From an uncultured Bacilli bacterium (GTDB taxonomy: Bacteria; Bacillota_I; Bacilli_A; RF39; UBA660): DNA of 64,000 nucleotides. A model generated the notes under the pieces. It made no database searches. It worked only from the letters and a program-made list of their open reading frames with translations, and was not told where the DNA came from. Positions 1 to 52,725 of this stretch are shown piece after piece (position 1 is the first letter of the stretch; each line of letters opens with the position of its first letter). The translations under genes were made by a program, and so were the position numbers. The stretch lies in contig CAKORG010000002.1 in NCBI GenBank assembly GCA_934101495.1, positions 510-64,509 of the forward strand. The letters run 5' to 3'.

Positions 1-96
1 ATGAAAATTGAACAAATTTGTGTTTGTTCTTTTTTTTCGACAAATTTTACACTTTCTTTGTGTTATGATAACAAATTAATGAAGGAGGTGCTCATT

Positions 97-519
97 TTGT
101 TTAAAATTGATAAGGAAGTTCTTATGATTGATTATGATGGGCTTAATACAAATGTTACAACTACTTATGGGGATGTAGTTTTTAGGGGAAATAATATTAA
201 AAATATTTTAATTGAGAGCTGCATTAGTTTTGGAAGTAGTTTAAATGGCAGAATAAAGGGAAGTAAATGGGCTTTAAAAAGTAAATATAAGCTGCCAATT
301 GTAGTTAGTGAGAAAGAAAAATTAGTGTTTTTCCCTGTTAAAGAGATGGGAAGAGAAATATGGGTTAATTTTGATATGATAAAAGAAGTAAAAAAGAATA
401 AAAATGTGGTAAAAGTAGAGTTTAAAAATGGTTTAAAAGTGGATATAAATGTAAGTTATACAATTTTTAATAACCAAGTTTTGAAAGCTAGTAGATTGTG
501 GATAATTTTTTTAACATAA
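97..519 (+). CDS. comK: ComK-family (competence transcription factor-like) protein
   Basis: Frame +1 ORF. AGGAGG at 83-88 is followed by TTG at 97, so the ATG at 1 is probably upstream read-through. ComK-like core: SCISFGSSLNGRIKGSKWALKSKYKLPIVV...LVFFPVKEMGREIWVNFDMI (compare ComK SC..GSS..GR / K.PI / FFPT...W). Start uncertain (79, 97 or 124). Confidence 0.55.
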   Translation: MFKIDKEVLMIDYDGLNTNVTTTYGDVVFRGNNIKNILIESCISFGSSLNGRIKGSKWALKSKYKLPIVVSEKEKLVFFPVKEMGREIWVNFDMIKEVKKNKNVVKVEFKNGLKVDINVSYTIFNNQVLKASRLWIIFLT

Positions 520-3664: not shown

Positions 3665-6178
3665 ATGGATCATAGTAGAGATAGATTACAAGAAAATAAT
3701 ATTGTAAGTGAAATTGAATCGTCTTTTATTGAATATTCAATGAGTGTTATTATTTCCAGAGCTTTGCCGGATTTAAGAGATGGTTTAAAGCCAGTTCATA
3801 GAAGAATTATCTATGACATGTTAGAAAATGGTTTGACACCAGATAAAAAACATCGTAAAAGTGCTACGATAGTTGGGGATGTTATGGGGAAATATCACCC
3901 ACATGGTGACTCATCAATATATGATGCTATGGTAAGAATGGCACAAGACTTTAATTATCGTTATTTACTTGTTGATGGACATGGTAACTTTGGTAATATT
4001 GAATATCCTAGAGCTGCTGCTTATCGTTATACTGAAAGTAAGCTTGCTAAGATTTCAATGGAACTTTTAAGAGATATCAACAAAAACACTGTTAATTTTG
4101 TACCAAATTATGATGATTCTACGGTAGAACCTGAAGTTTTACCTTCAAGATTTCCAAATATTTTAGTAAATGGAACAATGGGTATTGCTGTTGGTATGGC
4201 CACAAATATTCCACCACATAATTTAGGTGAAGTTGTTGATGGTTGTATTGCTTATATTGATAACCCTGATATTACTACGGAAGAGTTAATGCAACATATT
4301 AAAGGACCTGATTTTCCAACTGGTGGTATTATTTTAGGTAATTCTGGAATAAAGAAAGCTTATGAAACTGGTAGAGGTTCTATAACTATTAGGAGTAAAG
4401 CCACAATTGAAGAAAAAAATGGAAGACATTATATTGTTATTGAAGAAGTTCCTTATGGTGTTAATACATTAGATTTAAAACAAAAAGTAGCTGATTTAGT
4501 ACATAGCAAAGTACTTGAAGGTATTACTGATTATCATACTGATTTAAAAGATGGTATTAAAATAACTATAACACTTAAGAAAGATGCTAATCCTCAAGTA
4601 GTTTTAAATAATTTATATAAGCATACGGCTTTTCAAACAACTTTTGGTATTATTTTCTTGATGCTTGATAAAGGTGTACCTAGAACTTTAGGTTTAAAAG
4701 ATATAATTAGTAAATATGTAGATTATCAACAAGAAGTTATTATTAGAAGAACTCAATTTGAATTAGATAAAGCTGAAAAGAGAGTACATATCTTAGAAGG
4801 TTACCAAATTGTATTTGATAATATCGATGAGGTTATTAAAATTATTAAAGAGTCTAAGGCTGATGGTGAAGCAAAGCTTAAGTTAATGGAACGTTTTGGA
4901 TTAACTGAAGCTCAAACTGATAATATTCTAGAAATGAAATTACGTCGTTTAACGGGTCTAGAACGTGAAAAGATTGAAGAAGAACTAAATGCATTAAGAA
5001 TCGAAATAGAACGCTTACGTGGCATTTTAGCTGATAATAATAAGGTGTTAGGCATCATTAAAGATGAAATGACTGAAATTAAAAATAAATATGGTGACGA
5101 AAGACGTACTAAGATTGATATGACTGCGGTTGATTATATTGAAGATGAGTCATTAATTCCAGAAGAAAATATATTGGTAGTACTTACTAACAAAGGTTAT
5201 ATTAAGAGAACTACTGCTGATACATTTAAGTCACAAAATAGAGGTGGTGTTGGAATTAAGGGAATGTCTACGAATGATGAAGACTTTGTTGAACACATGA
5301 TTAACTTATCAACACATGATTATATCTTGTTCTTCACTGATAAAGGTAAGGTTTATAGACTTAAAGGTTATGAAATTCCTGAGTTTTCACGTCAATCTAA
5401 GGGTATTCCAATTGTTAACTTACTTCAAGTTGAAAAAGATGAAAGAGTAAATGCTGTTATTCAAATAAGTCGAAATGAGGATAGTAAATACTTGTTATTT
5501 GCAACCGAAGCTGGGGTAGTTAAGAAAACATTAATAAGTGAATTTGATAACATTAGAAATAGTGGTAAGATTTGTATTTCTTTAAGAGAAAATGATAAAC
5601 TTATTGGTGTTAAAAAGACAACAGGTAATGAATTGGTACTTCTTGGTAGTGATAGTGGTAGAATGGTTAAGTTTAATGAAGATGAAATTAGAGTTATGGG
5701 ACGTACTGCTTCCGGTGTTCGTGGTATTTCATTAGATGGAAGTAAGTGTATTTGTTCTGAAATTGTTAAAGAAGAAGATACTATACTTCTTGTAACTGAA
5801 AAGGGTTATGGAAAACAAACTAAGGTTAGCGAATACCGTCAAACTAGAAGAGGTTCTAAAGGTGTTAAAGCTATGAATATTACTGAAAAGAACGGTAATT
5901 TAGTAAGTGTTAAGATTGTTCATGAAGGTAAAGAACTCGTTATCATGACAAACTCTGGTATGACAATGAGAATGCCACTTGATCAAATATCTATTCTTGG
6001 TAGAGTTACGCAAGGTTTAAGACTTATTAATTTAAAAGATAATCAAAAGGTATCTACGATTAGTTTAGTAGATAAGACAGAGGAAGAAACTTCTGAAGAA
6101 AACACAGAACAATGTGAAAATGTTGCTCAAAATGAACCAAAAGTAACCGAAAATATTCAAAATACTGAGGCTGAATAA
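3665..6178 (+). CDS. gyrA: DNA gyrase subunit A
   Basis: [38 protein letters not shown], and the active-site AAYRYTE region. C-terminal beta-pinwheel repeats and an acidic tail. Confidence 0.98.
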
Positions 6179-6360
6179 GCCTTTTTATTTTGAATTATTG
6201 CGTATATACAATGTATAATTCAATAATTTTTATAATAAAAATCCATTATTTTGGCTGAAATATGCCAAATATTTTTTATCTTTATTATCTAATGTATGAG
6301 TTATCAACATAATTTTTGATTTGAATAAAACCGGTTATTTAATTTTTTATTTCATATTTA

Positions 6361-6376
6361 TGTTTCACGTGAAACA
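6361..6376. promoter_or_regulatory. parS: parS site 1 (perfect TGTTTCACGTGAAACA)
   Basis: Exact match to the universal parS palindrome, flanked by A/T to give the 18-bp palindrome ATGTTTCACGTGAAACAT. Confidence 0.9.
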
Positions 6377-6491
6377 TTTATTTAACATTGTTTAATTATC
6401 CTATTGTTTATTTTTTCACTTAATTATTTTAATTTACTTTTAAATTATATTATATCATTTTATGAAGTTATTTATTTATAATATGTCTGAA

Positions 6492-6507
6492 TGTTTCACG
6501 TGAAACG
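6492..6507. promoter_or_regulatory. parS: parS site 2 (TGTTTCACGTGAAACG, 1 mismatch)
   Basis: 15/16 match to consensus; the last base is A>G. Confidence 0.8.
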
Positions 6508-6649
6508 TTTAGTTATAACATTTTAATATTTTAATAGTTTTGTTATATTTTTATAATAATTAATAATTTTTAATTAATATTATAATTATAATTACTATTA
6601 TTTTATTATTTTATTTATAACATTGTTATTATTTACTATGATATTTTAA

Positions 6650-6665
6650 TGTTTCACGTGAAACA
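6650..6665. promoter_or_regulatory. parS: parS site 3 (perfect)
   Basis: Exact TGTTTCACGTGAAACA, followed by TGTTGATAA at 6669-6677. Confidence 0.9.
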
Positions 6666-6741
6666 TCGTGTTGATAACATGTTAATTTTTACATTTTTAT
6701 ATAATAATTATTATTTATAATTATTTTTACGATTATATTTA

Positions 6742-6757
6742 TGTTTCACGTGGAACA
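6742..6757. promoter_or_regulatory. parS: parS site 4 (TGTTTCACGTGGAACA)
   Basis: 15/16 match. Its reverse complement is TGTTCCACGTGAAACA, which fits TGTTNCACGTGAAACA. Followed by TGTTGATAA at 6759-6767. Confidence 0.85.
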
Positions 6758-6826
6758 TTGTTGATAATCGGTTATTAATTATATAATAAGCTAATTATTA
6801 TAGTAAAATAATTCTATATTTCATGA

Positions 6827-6842
6827 TGTTTCACGTGAAACA
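6827..6842. promoter_or_regulatory. parS: parS site 5 (perfect)
   Basis: Exact TGTTTCACGTGAAACA. Confidence 0.9.
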
Positions 6843-6928
6843 TCTGTTAGTAACTTGTTTGTATTCTATAATTGGTTTTATCTTGATAAAACTTTTATTT
6901 TTTATATCATTTGTAATAAACAATTTTA

Positions 6929-6944
6929 TGTTTCACGTGAAACA
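6929..6944. promoter_or_regulatory. parS: parS site 6 (perfect)
   Basis: Exact TGTTTCACGTGAAACA, followed by CGTTGATAA. Confidence 0.9.
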
Positions 6945-7033
6945 TTACGTTGATAATTAGTTACTAAGTACTTAATTAAGATTTACTTATGACATAATCA
7001 TCTTTTACAATTAATATATATAGCTAAAATATA

Positions 7034-7049
7034 TGTTTCACGTGGAACA
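7034..7049. promoter_or_regulatory. parS: parS site 7 (TGTTTCACGTGGAACA)
   Basis: 15/16 match, the same variant as site 4. Confidence 0.85.
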
Positions 7050-7103
7050 TATATTATTTTGTGTTGATAGTTCGATGATAATAAGGTTTATAATGTGTTT
7101 TAA

Positions 7104-7119
7104 TGTTTCACGTGAAACG
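7104..7119. promoter_or_regulatory. parS: parS site 8 (TGTTTCACGTGAAACG)
   Basis: 15/16 match, the same variant as site 2. Confidence 0.8.
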
Positions 7120-7254
7120 TTGTTAATTTACTAATAAATACCGCAATATTTTATTCGAATAAACGTATGTAACAACAAACAAATGTTTATTTAAAAACTT
7201 TTTTATTATATAACTATTATTTTGAAAGATTTTTATATATAATATAGCTTATAT

Positions 7255-7270
7255 TATTTCCCGGGAAATA
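7255..7270. promoter_or_regulatory. Noc-binding site (NBS) 1, perfect TATTTCCCGGGAAATA
   Basis: Exact 16-bp NBS palindrome (core ATTTCCCGGGAAAT). It lies inside the 32-bp repeat TTATTTCCCGGGAAATAATTGGTTAACATAAT at 7254-7285. Confidence 0.8.
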
Positions 7271-7411
7271 ATTGGTTAACATAATGTTATATTAAAAAGT
7301 ATAAAAAAATAAATTTTTAAAATGTCACGATGTAAGTAATTAACTAGGACTGATGAGAGTTATAAATTTAAAATTTTTATAAAAATAATAAAAGTTATGT
7401 CTTATCAAATT

Positions 7412-7427
7412 TATTTCCCGGGAAATA
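7412..7427. promoter_or_regulatory. Noc-binding site (NBS) 2, perfect TATTTCCCGGGAAATA
   Basis: Second exact copy, inside an identical 32-bp repeat at 7411-7442, 157 bp downstream of copy 1. Confidence 0.8.
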
Positions 7428-7550
7428 ATTGGTTAACATAATATTTAAAATAAGACAAAATTTTAATAAAGTTAGTATTTATCGAAGGATATTTTGTATT
7501 TTTAAATTAGTTTTCTTAGTTATTAACATTATTTTTGTGCTTGATTATAC

Positions 7551-7579
7551 TTGACTTATTGATTATAATTTGATACTAT
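7551..7579 (+). promoter_or_regulatory. sigma-A promoter for the SRP RNA
   Basis: -35 TTGACT at 7551-7556, 17-nt spacer, extended -10 TGaTACTAT at 7571-7579. Confidence 0.6.
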
Positions 7580-7583
7580 TTAG

Positions 7584-7667
7584 ACGTGCAACAAATATGC
7601 TGTAACCTGGTCAGAATTGGAAAATAGCAGCCACATCAGCCTATGTTTGTGTGCACATTTTTTTTGG
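7584..7667 (+). ncRNA. ffs: small (4.5S-type) signal recognition particle RNA
   Basis: CCUGGUCAGAAUUGGAAAAUAGCAGCCA matches SRP domain IV (GGUCAG..GGAA tetraloop..AGCAGCC). The 5' GUGCAACAAA pairs with the 3' UUUGUGUGCAC, and a U-run follows. In B. subtilis the scRNA gene also lies in the tadA/dnaX neighbourhood. Confidence 0.8.
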
Positions 7668-7675
7668 AGGAAAAC

Positions 7676-8104
7676 ATGGATATAGAAATATTTAATATTT
7701 TAATGGAAAATACTAATAAATCACTTGAAAATAACGACGTACCTGTTGGTGCAGTTATTGTTAAAGATGGACAAGTTCTTGCGTTTGGATACAATACGCG
7801 TGAAAAAGTTCAAAATGTTCTAGGACATGCTGAAATAAATGCTATATTGGAAGCTCAAAAAGTTTTAAAAAATTGGAATTTAAGTGGTTGTGATTTATAT
7901 GTTACATTAGTTCCTTGTTCCATGTGTTTAGAAATAATTAAACAAAGTAGAATAGATAATATTTATTATTTGCTTGATAAACCAACATTTAAAAGAGAAT
8001 TTTATAAAACAAAGTTACAAAAAATTAACGATACTAATTATGAAAATAAATATGCAGAAATATTAAGTAATTTTTTTAAAAAATTAAGAGAAAAAAATAA
8101 ATAA
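7676..8104 (+). CDS. tadA: tRNA-specific adenosine deaminase TadA
   Basis: HAEINAI...PCSMCLEIIKQSRI (CDA-fold zinc motifs). GGAGG at 7666-7670 precedes ATG 7676. The track start at 7643 would overlap the SRP RNA 3' stem. Confidence 0.9.
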   Translation: MDIEIFNILMENTNKSLENNDVPVGAVIVKDGQVLAFGYNTREKVQNVLGHAEINAILEAQKVLKNWNLSGCDLYVTLVPCSMCLEIIKQSRIDNIYYLLDKPTFKREFYKTKLQKINDTNYENKYAEILSNFFKKLREKNK

Positions 8105-8136: not shown

Positions 8137-9744
8137 ATGAATTACAAAGTTTTATATCGTAAATATCGACCAGATGGTTTTGATAATTTAGTTGGTCAAA
8201 AACATGTTGTGGATATTCTTAAAAACTCAATAAAAGAAAAAAGAATAGCACATGCTTACCTTTTTTCAGGACCTAGGGGAACTGGTAAAACATCAACAGC
8301 AAGAATACTTGCTAAATCAGTTAATTGTTTAAATAATAAAGATGGTGTTGCTTGCGGAGAATGTGAAAGCTGTTTATCCTTTAACGGAAATCCTGATATT
8401 ATAGAAATAGATGCAGCATCTAATAATGGTGTTGAAGAAATACGTGAACTTATTAATAATGTTAAGATTATGCCTACGAGTTTAAAATACAAGGTTTATA
8501 TAATAGATGAAGTTCATATGCTAAGTCAAAGTGCTTTTAATGCGTTACTTCTTACTTTGGAAGAACCACCTGAACATGTTTTGTTTATTTTGGCAACAAC
8601 AAACTTAGAAAGTGTGCCAATTACAATTGTATCAAGATGTCAAAGATTTGAATTTCATAGAATTACCGAAAATGATATAATTGATAGACTTAAATTTGTA
8701 TGTGATGAAGAAAAAATTGCTTATGAAGATGATGGACTTAAAGAAATTGCTACTTTAGCTGATGGGGGACTTCGTGATGCCCTTAGTATATTAGATCAAC
8801 TTTCTAAAAATGATGAAGTTATTACAAGTAAGCTAGTTTCTGAAGAAATAGGGAGTATTTCAAATAAAAAAATAGATGATTTAATTAAATATTTAGATAA
8901 AAATGATATTCAAGGTGTTGAAGAAATATTTAATCATCTTCAAAGCGTTAATTTAAATTATAAAGTATTTGTTAAAAAGTTAGTTTATGCTTTAAGTGAT
9001 GTTGGAGTTAAACTACTTAATAGTCCAGATGGATGGAGACTCGGCTTTGATGATTGTAAAAATTTAATCCTTGAACTTAATAATATACTTATGAAAATTA
9101 ATATAAGTGTTAATCCATATCTTATAATAAAAATGTTAGTTTTAAGTTATATGGATGGTGCAAAAAAAGATGTTCAAATTGATAAAAATTTTGAAAAAAT
9201 AAATGATGTTCAATCAAGGGATGAACAGGAAAAAACTGTAGTAGAAAGTAAAAAAATAATTCCAAAAATTGAAAGTACAAAAATACAAGAAAACGAAAAT
9301 AAAAATGTAGATATAAGAATTAATAATTGTTTTGCAGAAGCTACCAGAAACGATTTACTTAATTTAAAAGAAAAATGGAATAATTTTGTAGGTAGTACTG
9401 ATGATGCTTCTTTCAAAGGACTTCTTAGTGATACAAGTGTTGTGGCAGCATCACAAAGTTATGCAATTATTCAAGTTACAATACCTCATAAAGATAAAGA
9501 ATTAATGGCAAAATTAGAAACTATAGAAAAAAGGTTTAATGATTTTGCAAATGTTAATTATAAATTAATATTTTTAGAAGATACAAAATGGAATTATGAA
9601 AAAAATGAATACGTGAAAAAACTTAAGAGTGGGTATAAATATGCTATTCTTGAGGAAAAAGTAGAAAAAAAAGATAAGCAAAATGACATGGATGTGTCGG
9701 ATGTATCTGACATATTTGATATAAATAAAATAGAAGTTGAATAA
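8137..9744 (+). CDS. dnaX: DNA polymerase III subunit gamma/tau
   Basis: YRKYRP..F..LVGQ, GPRGTGKTS, zinc module CGECESC, IIDEVHMLS, SRCQRFEF. Confidence 0.95.
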   Translation: MNYKVLYRKYRPDGFDNLVGQKHVVDILKNSIKEKRIAHAYLFSGPRGTGKTSTARILAKSVNCLNNKDGVACGECESCLSFNGNPDIIEIDAASNNGVEEIRELINNVKIMPTSLKYKVYIIDEVHMLSQSAFNALLLTLEEPPEHVLFILATTNLESVPITIVSRCQRFEFHRITENDIIDRLKFVCDEEKIAYEDDGLKEIATLADGGLRDALSILDQLSKNDEVITSKLVSEEIGSISNKKIDDLIKYLDKNDIQGVEEIFNHLQSVNLNYKVFVKKLVYALSDVGVKLLNSPDGWRLGFDDCKNLILELNNILMKINISVNPYLIIKMLVLSYMDGAKKDVQIDKNFEKINDVQSRDEQEKTVVESKKIIPKIESTKIQENENKNVDIRINNCFAEATRNDLLNLKEKWNNFVGSTDDASFKGLLSDTSVVAASQSYAIIQVTIPHKDKELMAKLETIEKRFNDFANVNYKLIFLEDTKWNYEKNEYVKKLKSGYKYAILEEKVEKKDKQNDMDVSDVSDIFDINKIEVE

Positions 9745-9761
9745 GAAAGGAAGATTAATTT

Positions 9762-10058
9762 ATGAATATGCAACAAATTATGCAACAAGCACAAAGAATG
9801 CAAAGGGATATTACAAAGAAAAAAGAAGAAATTGATGCTATGGAATTTACTGGCAAATCTGAATGGGTTGAAATAGTTTTTAATGGTAAAAAAGAAATTA
9901 AATCGTTTAAATTATTAAATGAAGGAACTATTGATGCTGATGATAAAGAAATGCTTGAGGATATGATTATGATAGCAATTAGGGATGCATTTACAAAAAT
10001 TGATAAAGAAACTGAAAATAAACTTGGAAGTTATGCATCTATGAGTGGACTTTTCTAA
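9762..10058 (+). CDS. ybaB: YbaB/EbfC nucleoid-associated protein
   Basis: MNMQQIMQQAQRMQ... N-terminus, about 98 aa, in the conserved dnaX-ybaB-recR position. Confidence 0.9.
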   Translation: MNMQQIMQQAQRMQRDITKKKEEIDAMEFTGKSEWVEIVFNGKKEIKSFKLLNEGTIDADDKEMLEDMIMIAIRDAFTKIDKETENKLGSYASMSGLF

Positions 10059-12530: not shown

Positions 12531-13230
12531 TTTATTTGATTATCCAAATAGATATATTATGCAAATCAAAGATGGGTTTAAGTTTTCCTTGGACTCACTT
12601 TTACTCGCGGAATTTGCTAAATTACGTCAAAGTGATAAACTGATTTTAGATATGTGTACTGGTAATGCTCCGGTTCCTTTGGTGTTGAGTTTGAAAACTG
12701 ATGCTAAAATTATAGGTTTTGAATTACAAAAGGATATTGCAGAACTTGCCTGGGAGTCTATATCTATAAATGGACTTGATAAACAAATAAAAGTTATTAA
12801 TGATGATGTTAAAAATATTGGTGAATTTTTCAAAACCAATACATTTGATGTAATAACATGTAATCCACCTTATTTTAAAATAAATGATGATGGATGTAAA
12901 AATAAAAATGATTACTTAACACTTGCAAGACATGAAATTGCTATAGATTTAGAAACTATTTTTAAGCTTGTTAATAGATTTTTAAAAGATAATGGTGTGT
13001 TTTACATGGTACATAGAGCTGAAAGACTTGATGAAATTATAATTTTGGCAAATAAATATAAGTTAAATGCTAAAGAAATTCAGTTTATTTCCACTAAAAA
13101 GAATAATAATCCAAGTACTATTTTAGTTAAATGTGTAAAAAACAGTAAGCTTGGTGTTAAAATAAGAAAAGAAATTTGTGTTGATAACCTAACTACTTAT
13201 CAACATTTATTTGAAGGGAGTAGAAAATAA
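12508..13230 (+). CDS. SAM-dependent methyltransferase, YabB/TrmN6-like (tRNA m6A37)
   Basis: DMCTGNAPVPL SAM pocket and the ITCNPPYF (NPPY) catalytic motif, in the syntenic yabB position. Confidence 0.8.
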   Translation: MISKVKNDLFDYPNRYIMQIKDGFKFSLDSLLLAEFAKLRQSDKLILDMCTGNAPVPLVLSLKTDAKIIGFELQKDIAELAWESISINGLDKQIKVINDDVKNIGEFFKTNTFDVITCNPPYFKINDDGCKNKNDYLTLARHEIAIDLETIFKLVNRFLKDNGVFYMVHRAERLDEIIILANKYKLNAKEIQFISTKKNNNPSTILVKCVKNSKLGVKIRKEICVDNLTTYQHLFEGSRK

Positions 13231-17506: not shown

Positions 17507-17544
17507 CTTGAATTAAACTAAGATTTATGATAAACTAGTTTTAA

Positions 17545-17745
17545 TTAACGAAGAAGGAAAGAGTAGATATCATTCATTTCATAGAGATTTCTTGGTTGGT
17601 GAAAAAGAAAAAATGAAGATATTCGAACATGGCTCTGGAGTTAAAATCGGGTAATTACGTTATAGATTTTAAGTTGCATGATAAATCATGAATTAAGGTG
17701 GTACCGCGGGTTATACTCGTCCTTAGTTTGTGATTTTTTTTTGGA
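17545..17745 (+). promoter_or_regulatory. T-box leader (tRNA-Met specifier) upstream of dut-metG
   Basis: Stem I elements: GAAGGAAAGAGTA, AGAGA at 17583-17587, distal GGTGAAA. Candidate specifier AUG at 17613-17615 is followed by A. T-box AATTAAGGTGGTACCGCG at 17691-17708, then a U-run at about 17733-17741 before the RBS. Confidence 0.85.
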
Positions 17746-51789: not shown

Positions 51790-52725
51790 GTGAAATCAAA
51801 AACATTTAAAACATTAGATGAACAAATTGACATACTAACTAAAAAAGGATTAGTGGTTGAAGATTTTGAAACTGCTAAAACTGTTTTGTTACGTGAAAAT
51901 TACTTTTTCTTAAGTGGTTACCGTCATTTATTTATGAGACCCGATGATAACAAGACTTATCTTGAAGGTACAACATTTAATGAATTGTATTCAATGTTTC
52001 TTTTTGATAGACAAATAAGAAATATAATTTTTAAAAATATTTTAATAGTAGAAAATAATTTAAAAAGTATACTTGCTTATATTATGAGTAAAAATCATGG
52101 GTTTAAAGAAAATAATTATTTAAATCCAAATAACTTTGTGAGAGATTCAAGAAGAAATAGACAAATTAATGATTTAATCAGAAAAATGAAAAGACAGATA
52201 AGTGTTAATGGTAAACAACATAGTGCAACAGCTCATTACATCATAAATTATGGTTATATTCCTCTTTGGGTTGTTGTTAAAGTTTTATCGTTTGGAATAG
52301 TAGGTGAACTTTATACTGTACTTCAATATCAAGACCAAAAGGAAATTGCTGATGTTTTTGGGGTTAGTATTGATAGTATGGTTGATTATTTACCAATTGT
52401 AGCTAATTATCGTAATTTGTGTGCTCATGAAGATATTTGTTATGTTAATAGAACTCAAAAGGCTATTGATGATACAAAATATCATAAACTATTGTATATT
52501 CCTAAGATAAATGAAGAATATATATATGGGAAGAATGATTTGTTTGCACTTATAATTATTTTAAAACAGTTATTAGATGAAGATAATTTTAACTTATTTA
52601 TTAGCGAAATCAGTTATGAATTTGATAGACTTTCTGGTAAATTAAAGGTAATTAAGATAGAAAAAGTATTACATGAAATGGGATTTCCAAATAATTTTAA
52701 AGAAATAGTGAGGTTAGAAAAATGA
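51790..52725 (+). CDS. Abi_2 family (AbiD/AbiF-like) abortive-infection protein
   Basis: The N-terminus FKTLDEQIDILTKKGLVVEDFETAKTVLLRENYFFLSGYRHLF is the hallmark Abi_2 opening. HEDICY follows near RNLCAHE. GTG start after AAAGGCGG. Confidence 0.8.
   Translation: MKSKTFKTLDEQIDILTKKGLVVEDFETAKTVLLRENYFFLSGYRHLFMRPDDNKTYLEGTTFNELYSMFLFDRQIRNIIFKNILIVENNLKSILAYIMSKNHGFKENNYLNPNNFVRDSRRNRQINDLIRKMKRQISVNGKQHSATAHYIINYGYIPLWVVVKVLSFGIVGELYTVLQYQDQKEIADVFGVSIDSMVDYLPIVANYRNLCAHEDICYVNRTQKAIDDTKYHKLLYIPKINEEYIYGKNDLFALIIILKQLLDEDNFNLFISEISYEFDRLSGKLKVIKIEKVLHEMGFPNNFKEIVRLEK

Follow-up and report, generated by a model that had tools for sequence, protein, structure and literature searches.

Noc-binding sites beside a parS array in an uncultured Bacilli lineage suggest a composite ParB/Noc loading zone near the origin

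Introduction

ParB and Noc are textbook paralogues whose recognition sites differ at two bases per half-site, and the systems to which they belong, ParB in chromosome segregation and SMC loading and Noc in the control of the division site, have been treated as separate. The subject of this report is a locus at which the two kinds of site meet. In a stretch of 64,000 nucleotides from an uncultured Bacilli bacterium (RF39; UBA660; GenBank assembly GCA_934101495.1, contig CAKORG010000002.1, positions 510 to 64,509; hereafter "the window"), the spacer between gyrA and ffs carries an array of parS sites and, next to it, a pair of Noc-binding sites (NBS), which an initial annotation made from the letters alone had taken for a composite, origin-proximal platform. 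To our knowledge, clustering of NBS with parS is not described for model species, and literature searches that touched on the pattern brought up no description of it.

Proteins of the ParB/Noc family nucleate on a palindrome, bind CTP, close into a clamp and slide (PMC8429893, PMC7383237), and the 16-bp palindromes of both kinds form the cores of oligonucleotides that served in biochemical and crystallographic work on Noc and ParB (PMC8429893, PMC7383237). In Bacillus subtilis Noc, an N-terminal amphipathic helix of 10 residues is needed for membrane binding and occlusion (PMC8429893). The discrimination between the two sites was dissected by Jalal et al. 2020, who found that, in Caulobacter ParB numbering (used throughout), Q173 reads A1 and R201 reads C6, that one lysine at either 179 or 184 suffices, and that R173 is invariant in proteins that bind parS (PMC7383237).

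The explanation favored here, which we consider probable, is that the palindromes of the window are real NBS that belong to a lineage-wide composite ParB/Noc loading zone, in which two paralogous clamps would be deposited side by side. Noc, NBS and ParB-parS are known as such; what is new is their pairing across a clade, which suggests that the two proteins work together.

Two kinds of site in one spacer

NBS-1 (7255-7270) and NBS-2 (7412-7427) were identified by pattern search as perfect copies, without strand orientation, of the 16-bp Noc-binding palindrome TATTTCCCGGGAAATA, whose 14-bp core is ATTTCCCGGGAAAT. The palindrome occurs exactly twice in the window, with no further match at up to two mismatches; shuffled versions of the window contained on average 0.01 matches, and none of 100 shuffles reached two. 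The hexamer CCCGGG itself is confined to these sites, with one occurrence in each and none elsewhere in the 64 kb. Each NBS lies in a repeat unit on the plus strand (repeat family D6; 7254-7288 and 7411-7445), in which it is followed by a 16-bp extension, ATTGGTTAACATAAT; the two units are identical over 32 bp (7254-7285 and 7411-7442), match at 34 of 35 positions over 35 bp, and stand 157 bp apart from start to start. Outside the 35-bp core, their flanks are no more similar than shuffled sequence.

The parS array (6361-7119, unstranded) consists of eight sites with zero or one mismatch each to the consensus TGTTTCACGTGAAACA, counted on the better-matching strand of each site. A pattern search placed the sites at 6361-6376, 6492-6507, 6650-6665, 6742-6757, 6827-6842, 6929-6944, 7034-7049 and 7104-7119, with irregular spacing of 70 to 158 bp. 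The search returned 17 strand matches in the window against 0.03 expected, and a ninth parS-like match, with two mismatches, lies outside the array at 2878. Repeat families D1-D4 cover the parS units, which on this ground are read as old duplications. The last parS is separated from NBS-1 by 135 bp, so that the two clusters form separate blocks and are not interleaved. Pattern and repeat searches thus bear out the initial annotation on the central point, namely two perfect NBS within identical 32-bp repeats 135 bp past the last parS; moreover, both 16-mers are identical to the cores of the oligonucleotides on which B. subtilis Noc and ParB were studied in vitro (PMC8429893, PMC7383237).

Both clusters lie in the 1.4-kb gyrA-ffs spacer, with dnaA about 9-10 kb to the left, and no credible open reading frame (none above 45 aa) was found in this spacer. 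For the NBS region, the presence of a gene for an RNA or a peptide was considered and rejected, since Rfam detects ffs only and the open reading frames of up to 45 aa are AT-rich noise. The layout of eight parS and two NBS is the same in seven independent conspecific assemblies.

NBS and parS co-localize across the clade

The generality of this arrangement was examined by mapping both palindromes over 10 kb on either side of gyrA in 80 species representatives, of which 24 loci make up the clade of the window and 21 entered a locus-level test of co-localization. The closest species representatives have a GyrA identity of 60-82%; one is a closed 1.5-Mb chromosome and one is named "uncultured Tenericutes bacterium UMGS1372", and proteins identical to those of the window occur in contigs from human-gut metagenomes. 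The clade may represent an order of small-genome Bacilli that resembles RFN20 or RF39. A parS array follows just after gyrA in nearly all 24 clade loci, and NBS join it in more than half. Of the 21 loci, 12 have a cluster of NBS no more than 200 bp away from the gyrA-side parS array, as opposed to 1.66 expected (P = 2e-9, a value that overstates independence because the loci are phylogenetically related), and 38 of 55 NBS fall in the 4.7% of sequence that is within 200 bp of parS.

The manner in which the two sites are combined varies from species to species. In the closest GTDB representative (L024), a triad of parS, NBS and parS, separated by 10 bp on each side, abuts the ffs promoter. Other relatives carry tandem arrays of composite units: a 64-bp unit of NBS, 10 bp, parS and 22 bp, repeated 7.8 times (L020); an 82-bp unit with one parS and one NBS, repeated 8.1 times (L022); and, in the closed genome (L019, OZ006970.1), a 126-bp unit with one site of each kind, repeated 5.6 times. 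Similar alternations are present in L028 and L029, mixed clusters in L014, L017, L018, L023 and L027, and in L021 three NBS precede seven parS, in a mirror image of the window. In two species the array follows ffs instead of preceding it. The spacers of the tandem units are unrelated between species, indicating that the amplifications are independent. No hybrid site was found in the clade loci, every site being purely of the parS type or purely of the NBS type on both halves, which argues for two separate readers. Set against this striking pattern in the clade, the window, with its blocks 135 bp apart, is a modest case, and the idea of a composite platform is strongly reinforced by the 12 loci and by the alternating tandem arrays of several relatives.

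The distribution of perfect NBS points in the same direction: the gyrA-side loci of the clade hold 51 in 433 kb, loci around the noc gene of the same family four in 880 kb, and the gyrA loci of other Bacilli none in 878 kb. The initial annotation had asked for other NBS as a measure of how exceptional the pair is; relatives do have them, with one to three additional perfect NBS per 22 kb, while none beyond the pair was found in the readable sequence of this species, which amounts to about 117 kb or about 8% of a genome of about 1.5 Mb. Some of the additional sites lie inside genes, namely in recF (L006:7707, L007:7704, L008:7706), in a methyltransferase gene (L006:18605, L007:18424, L009:17820, L024:17745, equivalent to position 12826 of the window) and in a gene of the dnaX region. 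These coding NBS are orthologous in position across several relatives, where they dictate the peptides ISRE and FPGN; at the same positions, the species of the window has other codons and residues and no site. NBS positions turn over between species.

The competing explanation that survives best, and to which we assign a minor but real chance, accepts the NBS as real but takes their position beside parS to be incidental, a result of enrichment near the origin and of a long AT-rich spacer, with ParB and the Noc-like protein acting independently. It can draw on the relatives L006-L009, whose NBS lie in recF, dnaX-region and methyltransferase genes and not beside parS, and on the separation of the two blocks in the window. 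However, the occurrence of NBS inside coding genes of relatives means that non-coding space is not what forces NBS beside parS, and a frequency of 12 in 21 loci against 1.66 expected is difficult to reconcile with incidental placement. In addition, units composed of one parS and one NBS at constant distances (10 bp in L020) have been amplified in at least three lineages, and the DNA on the noc side, which is also origin-proximal, has only those four perfect NBS in 880 kb. A composite loading zone accounts for these observations more readily. A further candidate, in which NBS would serve as a boundary that stops ParB from sliding into ffs, was rejected, as a simple boundary role does not fit the variety of arrangements: the NBS of the window face ffs, those of L021 face gyrA, that of L024 stands between two parS, and elsewhere the two site types alternate.

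A Noc-like protein encoded beside rsmG

If the palindromes are NBS, one would expect the species to encode a reader of the Noc type. The rsmG side of oriC lies beyond the window and was reached through MnmE homologues in conspecific contigs (L003, L004, L005 and L100), which are about 97% identical in nucleotide sequence to the strain of the window over 6.6 kb; L003-L005, at 96.6-97.0%, are on this basis assigned to the same species. Their gene order is rpmH-rnpA-yidC-jag-...-mnmE-mnmG-rsmG, followed by a single gene for a 399-aa protein with ParB_N and HTH_ParB domains (P0121; L003:14056-15255, directly downstream of rsmG), after which no soj/spo0J is present. The same layout is seen in a sister species (L086, L087; gene at L086:13991-15214, adjoining rsmG), and more than 120 sequence variants all have an intact copy of the gene. 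The initial annotation had made its proposal dependent on a Noc homologue, expected next to rsmG, and it is there that the gene is found.

Several lines of comparison place this protein with Noc. Its best solved relatives are Noc structures (7NG0/7NFU at 194 bits and B. subtilis Noc 7OL9 at 181), ahead of Spo0J (175), and its top NCBIfam model is Noc (TIGR04285), at 274.9 bits versus 186.5 for the generic parB_part; PGAP names it "ParB/RepB/Spo0J family partition protein". At the specificity positions 173, 179, 184 and 201 it has Q, K, T and R (own residues Q136, K142 and R164 for the first, second and fourth), and hence the residues for NBS recognition Q173, K179 and R201, one lysine being sufficient (PMC7383237). 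The protein is therefore predicted to read exactly the NBS of the window and, because it would do so through these three residues, should ignore the neighboring parS. Motifs of the CTP-binding N-terminal domain are retained, GERRFKA and ENIQRKDL being invariant in the alignments (GERRxR, ENxQR). AlphaFold models residues 10-206, which comprise the CTPase domain and the helix-turn-helix (HTH), and residues 355-393, the C-terminal domain, with confidence; between HTH and C-terminal domain lie about 150 disordered acidic residues, interrupted by a short helix at 281-286 (NKFFNF).

It is at the N-terminus that the protein departs from its model. Its alignment to Noc starts at about Noc residue 23-28, with only 5-8 residues before that point in the Noc-like protein, and structure and sequence alignments reveal no counterpart of the amphipathic membrane helix. 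The part of the initial annotation that envisaged membrane tethering or nucleoid occlusion therefore finds no support. The short N-terminus is shared by most of the family, sampled as the 150 best matches among 1.84 billion cluster representatives, together with the query (151 sequences). All 150 representatives are of the Noc-like type, 227-747 aa in length, and score above B. subtilis Noc; Q173 is conserved in 144 of 151 sequences, K179 in 147 and R201 in 149, position 184 is N, S or T in 140, and 136 have 14-20 residues before the PNRFQPR motif. Judged by these sequences, there is a large Noc subfamily without membrane helix, comprising at least 150 clusters at 50% identity. Since this helix defines the known mechanism of Noc, the function implied by the name "Noc" comes into question in this subfamily. 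The amphipathic motif NKFFNFLE was considered as a universally relocated membrane helix and rejected in that role, being present in 38-62 of the 151 representatives and not family-wide.

Canonical ParB and the question of a single reader

The parS array calls for a ParB, and its gene was sought by several routes. A tblastn search of the loci of this species with Spo0J, Soj and the Noc-like protein gave the Noc-like gene itself as sole match, and no ParB or Soj gene was found in the window, in 10 kb beyond it or in about 31 kb to the left of recF. With RpsR, SsbA, YchF and Soj as synteny markers, tblastn yielded no match. The search for family representatives returned Noc-like proteins only, among the matches listed, and a homologue search seeded with the ParB of a relative gave, among the matches listed, only proteins from the own genus of that relative. 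Metagenomic loci with ParB were also compared by overlap with gyrA loci; the identity was at most 77% in nucleotides, so that none of these pairs comes from the same species.

Related lineages do carry such a gene. A profile of the Noc-like family recovered 80 loci from metagenomes; in 26 of them, canonical soj and spo0J adjoin the Noc-like gene or lie 8-9 kb off, and most of the 18 ParB sequences from these loci have an N-terminal motif of the ALGKGLEELF type, the segment GKSRSHITN (with R173), and G, S or A at position 201. In L122 (1773-3435), L133 (194-1865) and L135 (minus strand), soj-spo0J lies about 8 kb from the Noc-like gene and is divergent from rnpA-yidC-jag. The nearest lineages with adjacent soj-spo0J have an MnmG 68% identical to that of this species and are as close to it as many lineages in which the genes are not adjacent; in the sub-lineage of the window, soj-spo0J would be separated by more than 10 kb from noc as well as from gyrA. 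The noc-side loci (L100-L177), which amount to about 880 kb and include those with soj-spo0J, contain no parS. The Noc-like family clearly coexists with a canonical ParB, and soj-spo0J has presumably been relocated in this sub-lineage. A canonical ParB is likely in this species as well, given its eight consensus parS and the requirement of R173 for parS binding. As to the proposal of ParB-SMC loading beside Noc, its Noc half is thus strengthened by the discovery of a reader of the Noc type, while its ParB half leans on the parS sites and on relatives, no ParB gene having been found in the readable sequence of the species.

Could one protein serve both sites? In this scheme a single ParB-family protein, linked to rsmG or of dual specificity, would read parS as well as NBS, canonical ParB having been lost. 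The presence of only one ParB-family gene in the sequence searched from this species and its closest relatives speaks for it, as do the T, N or S at position 184 in place of the lysine of Noc and the existence of variants with dual specificity among the mutants scanned by Jalal et al. (PMC7383237). Nevertheless, R173 was needed in every functional parS-binding variant and in every natural ParB, whereas the Noc-like family has Q173 and R201, and at 201 most of the dual-specificity variants have T or S, not R. Moreover, the two site types are strict, without intermediates, soj-spo0J persists in related lineages that share this Noc-like family, and only about 8% of the genome was searched. We regard a single reader as improbable, and a loading zone served by two proteins as the better account.

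The 32-bp unit and its extension

The initial annotation had also drawn attention to the 16 bp that follow each NBS, as a possible binding site for a further factor, and had asked whether the whole 32-bp unit is conserved in relatives. It is not: among the species examined, ATTGGTTAACATAAT adjoins NBS in this one only, and the evidence for another factor is correspondingly weak. Many NBS of relatives are flanked by AAAT...ATTT, which merely lengthens the palindrome. No further copy of the unit occurs in the window, no additional copy of the 14-mer core was found in the other sequence of the species, and a search of 2.9 million viral contigs gave no match, so that the unit does not behave as a fragment of a dispersed or mobile repeat, and a phage or mobile origin was discarded. 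Two other candidates were set aside, a longer, decayed tandem duplication around the unit (its flanks are similar only as by chance, and TRF finds no such array) and a DnaA box within the extension (its reverse complement, compared by eye, matches TTATCAACA at only 5 of 9 positions). The extension does loosely resemble the GTTAxxAAC flanks of the parS sites of this species. On the simplest reading, the 32-35-bp units would be a short, recent and species-specific copying of one NBS with a little flank, not an extended recognition element.

The 32-bp units are invariant in the conspecific assemblies L090-L094 and L097. Two short-read assemblies (L095, L098) both start 133 bp before NBS-2, between the units, and a third (L096) starts in the same spacer, which makes the 32-bp repeat or the array a recurrent assembly breakpoint.

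A role for these palindromes as operators of an unrelated transcription factor for ffs-tadA-dnaX, with the 32-bp unit as the extended site, is still less probable than a single reader. The sites do lie 150-320 bp upstream of ffs, the triad of L024 abuts the ffs promoter, and the two copies agree over the full 32 bp, which do not vary among strains. But the 16-mer coincides exactly with the Noc site, and the species encodes a reader of the Noc type; the same 16-mer occurs inside coding genes and after ffs in relatives, the extension is conserved in no other species, and eight-fold tandem arrays are not operator-like. Finally, that the unit is a functionless piece of a dispersed or mobile repeat, or a product of chance or assembly, is hardly credible: the sharp boundary at 35 bp with unrelated flanks, as after insertion of a small element, and the two assemblies that break between the copies are outweighed by the restriction to two copies in the window with no other 14-mer core in about 117 kb, the lack of a viral match, the exclusion of chance by the shuffles, the identical architecture of seven independent assemblies and the clade-wide conservation of a core that is a known protein-binding site.

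DnaA-box variants beside parS

The GTTAxxAAC flanks of the parS sites are variants of the DnaA box (TTATCAACA). One copy of TTATCAACA lies on the minus strand at 6669-6677, only 3 bp away from the parS at 6650, another at 6759-6767 adjoins the parS at 6742, and a further variant box (TTATCAACA or TTATCCACA) is at 6301-6309; weaker copies near 6845, 6949 and 7066 flank the parS at 6827, 6929 and 7034. Both variants are used in the oriC of the species, where TTATCAACA is found at 2217, 2324 and 3826 of L001. Such variants also lie 1-5 bp from many parS of L006-L009, L014 and L018, and boxes with at most one mismatch occur in the 18-nt flanks of 15 of 87 parS, against about four expected. DnaA box and parS may thus constitute a composite unit. 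In Staphylococcus aureus, Noc restrains DnaA-dependent initiation (PMC5540599); together with the boxes adjoining many parS, this makes a link between the NBS/parS zone and the control of initiation conceivable.

A composite loading zone for two clamps

The mechanism that would unite these observations is as follows. The palindromes of the window would act as nucleation and loading sites for the Noc-family, ParB-like CTP-clamp protein, whose gene just downstream of rsmG, across oriC, would be roughly 20 kb from the NBS along the chromosome, while the parS sites would presumably be loaded by a canonical ParB with R173 and G or S at 201, as encoded in related lineages. Each protein is expected to nucleate on its own palindrome, bind CTP, close into a clamp and slide onto flanking DNA, so that the gyrA-ffs spacer would be a joint loading zone from which both clamps spread over origin-proximal DNA. 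Selection appears to have united both site types repeatedly in relatives; in the window the outcome is a block of eight parS followed by two NBS. The purpose of such an arrangement could be joint positioning of the origin, mutual confinement of the clamps that raises their local density, or the recruitment of partners by the linker of the Noc-like protein.

A number of points weigh against this explanation. The Noc-like gene is known from conspecific genomes and not from the contig of the window itself, its product falls under the TIGR04285 cut-off (274.9 as opposed to 315 bits), and it has neither K184 nor the N-terminal membrane helix; these last three features raise the possibility of a role in the cell other than the one Noc has. 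Canonical ParB or Soj was not found by tblastn in the approximately 117 kb of the species, and no soj-spo0J lies within 10 kb of the Noc-like gene in the closest relatives (L100-L121). The species has only two NBS in the same sequence, in clusters that are 135 bp apart and not interleaved, and the nearest relatives, L006-L009, have a parS array without adjacent NBS, which makes the juxtaposition frequent but not obligatory. To these must be added the relatedness of the loci noted above.

A bolder version of the loading zone, which we put forward tentatively and consider less likely than not, casts canonical ParB and the helix-less Noc paralogue as partners that would be loaded at alternating sites 7-10 bp apart into a mixed CTP-clamp complex, a hybrid between centromere and origin organizer. 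The long linker of the Noc-like protein could in that case bring a further activity, such as contact with the membrane, the divisome or DnaA, and the independent amplification of composite units in several lineages would reflect selection for the partnership. That a whole clade keeps both site types together, in part alternating with 10-bp gaps, would be natural evidence of interaction or co-regulation of the two clamps. The composite arrays should also provide ready substrates for the study of site discrimination, mutual roadblocking, co-spreading and possible cross-loading.

Genomic context

The spacer is bordered on the left by gyrA (3665-6178, plus strand; an open reading frame of 837 aa, with Pfam domains DNA_topoisoIV and DNA_gyraseA_C detected on the identical gene of the conspecific contig L001) and on the right by ffs, the small SRP RNA (7580-7665, plus strand; matching Rfam RF00169 at 54.5 bits, above the gathering score of 40), preceded by promoter-like hexamers at 7541-7579 in a promoter scan. 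A tadA-like gene for a tRNA adenosine deaminase, identified by Pfam (7676-8104, plus strand), follows, and then dnaX, ybaB and recR. The window has a G+C content of 27% and a very strong GC skew.

Other features are recorded here in their own right. A ComK-family gene (window 1-519; L001:5174-5596) lies between dnaN and recF, an unusual location for a competence regulator, and is kept in the sister species. A T-box leader is found at 17542-17727 (Rfam, 110.8 bits), upstream of an open reading frame starting at 17678, and the gene table of L088 assigns a Pfam Abi_2 (abortive-infection) domain to 51790-52725, possibly a phage-defense gene amid housekeeping genes. Upstream of mnmE, L004 carries a 431-aa open reading frame with a PT-HINT/intein-like domain (8546-9841), which in another strain of the same species is split into pieces of 190 and 80 aa (L003:8547-9841).

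Comparison with known systems

The RacA-ram sites of B. subtilis are likewise many copies of a short site in origin-proximal DNA, and arrays such as those of this clade could give rise to a dense coat of protein by which the origin region is positioned. The protein family differs, however, the sites of the clade are tandem and paired with parS, and no link to sporulation or to the cell pole is seen here.

With chromosomal ParB-parS systems the clade shares multiple consensus parS within about 10 kb of dnaA, as in Spo0J/ParB centromeres, and its related lineages encode Soj together with a Spo0J that has the N-terminal ParA-contact motif, R173, and G or S at 201. It differs in that 8-10 parS are packed within about 1 kb of a single post-gyrA spacer, with none near the parB gene in relatives, in that parS are mixed with the sites of a paralogue, and in that the ParB gene of the species is not adjacent to the Noc-like gene.

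The closest counterpart is the Noc-NBS system of nucleoid occlusion in B. subtilis and S. aureus, with which the locus shares the same 16-bp site, a protein encoded beside rsmG, the ParB_N CTPase fold, HTH and C-terminal domain, the residues Q173, K179 and R201, and sites that are origin-proximal, as in both model species. The Noc-like family, on the other hand, has 14-20 residues before PNRFQPR where B. subtilis Noc has 39, and no amphipathic helix; its member in this species falls below the NCBIfam cut-off for Noc, and T, N or S replaces K184, with a disordered acidic linker of about 150 aa before the C-terminal domain. Above all, the NBS of model species are scattered singly, whereas those of this clade are clustered with parS, even in tandem.

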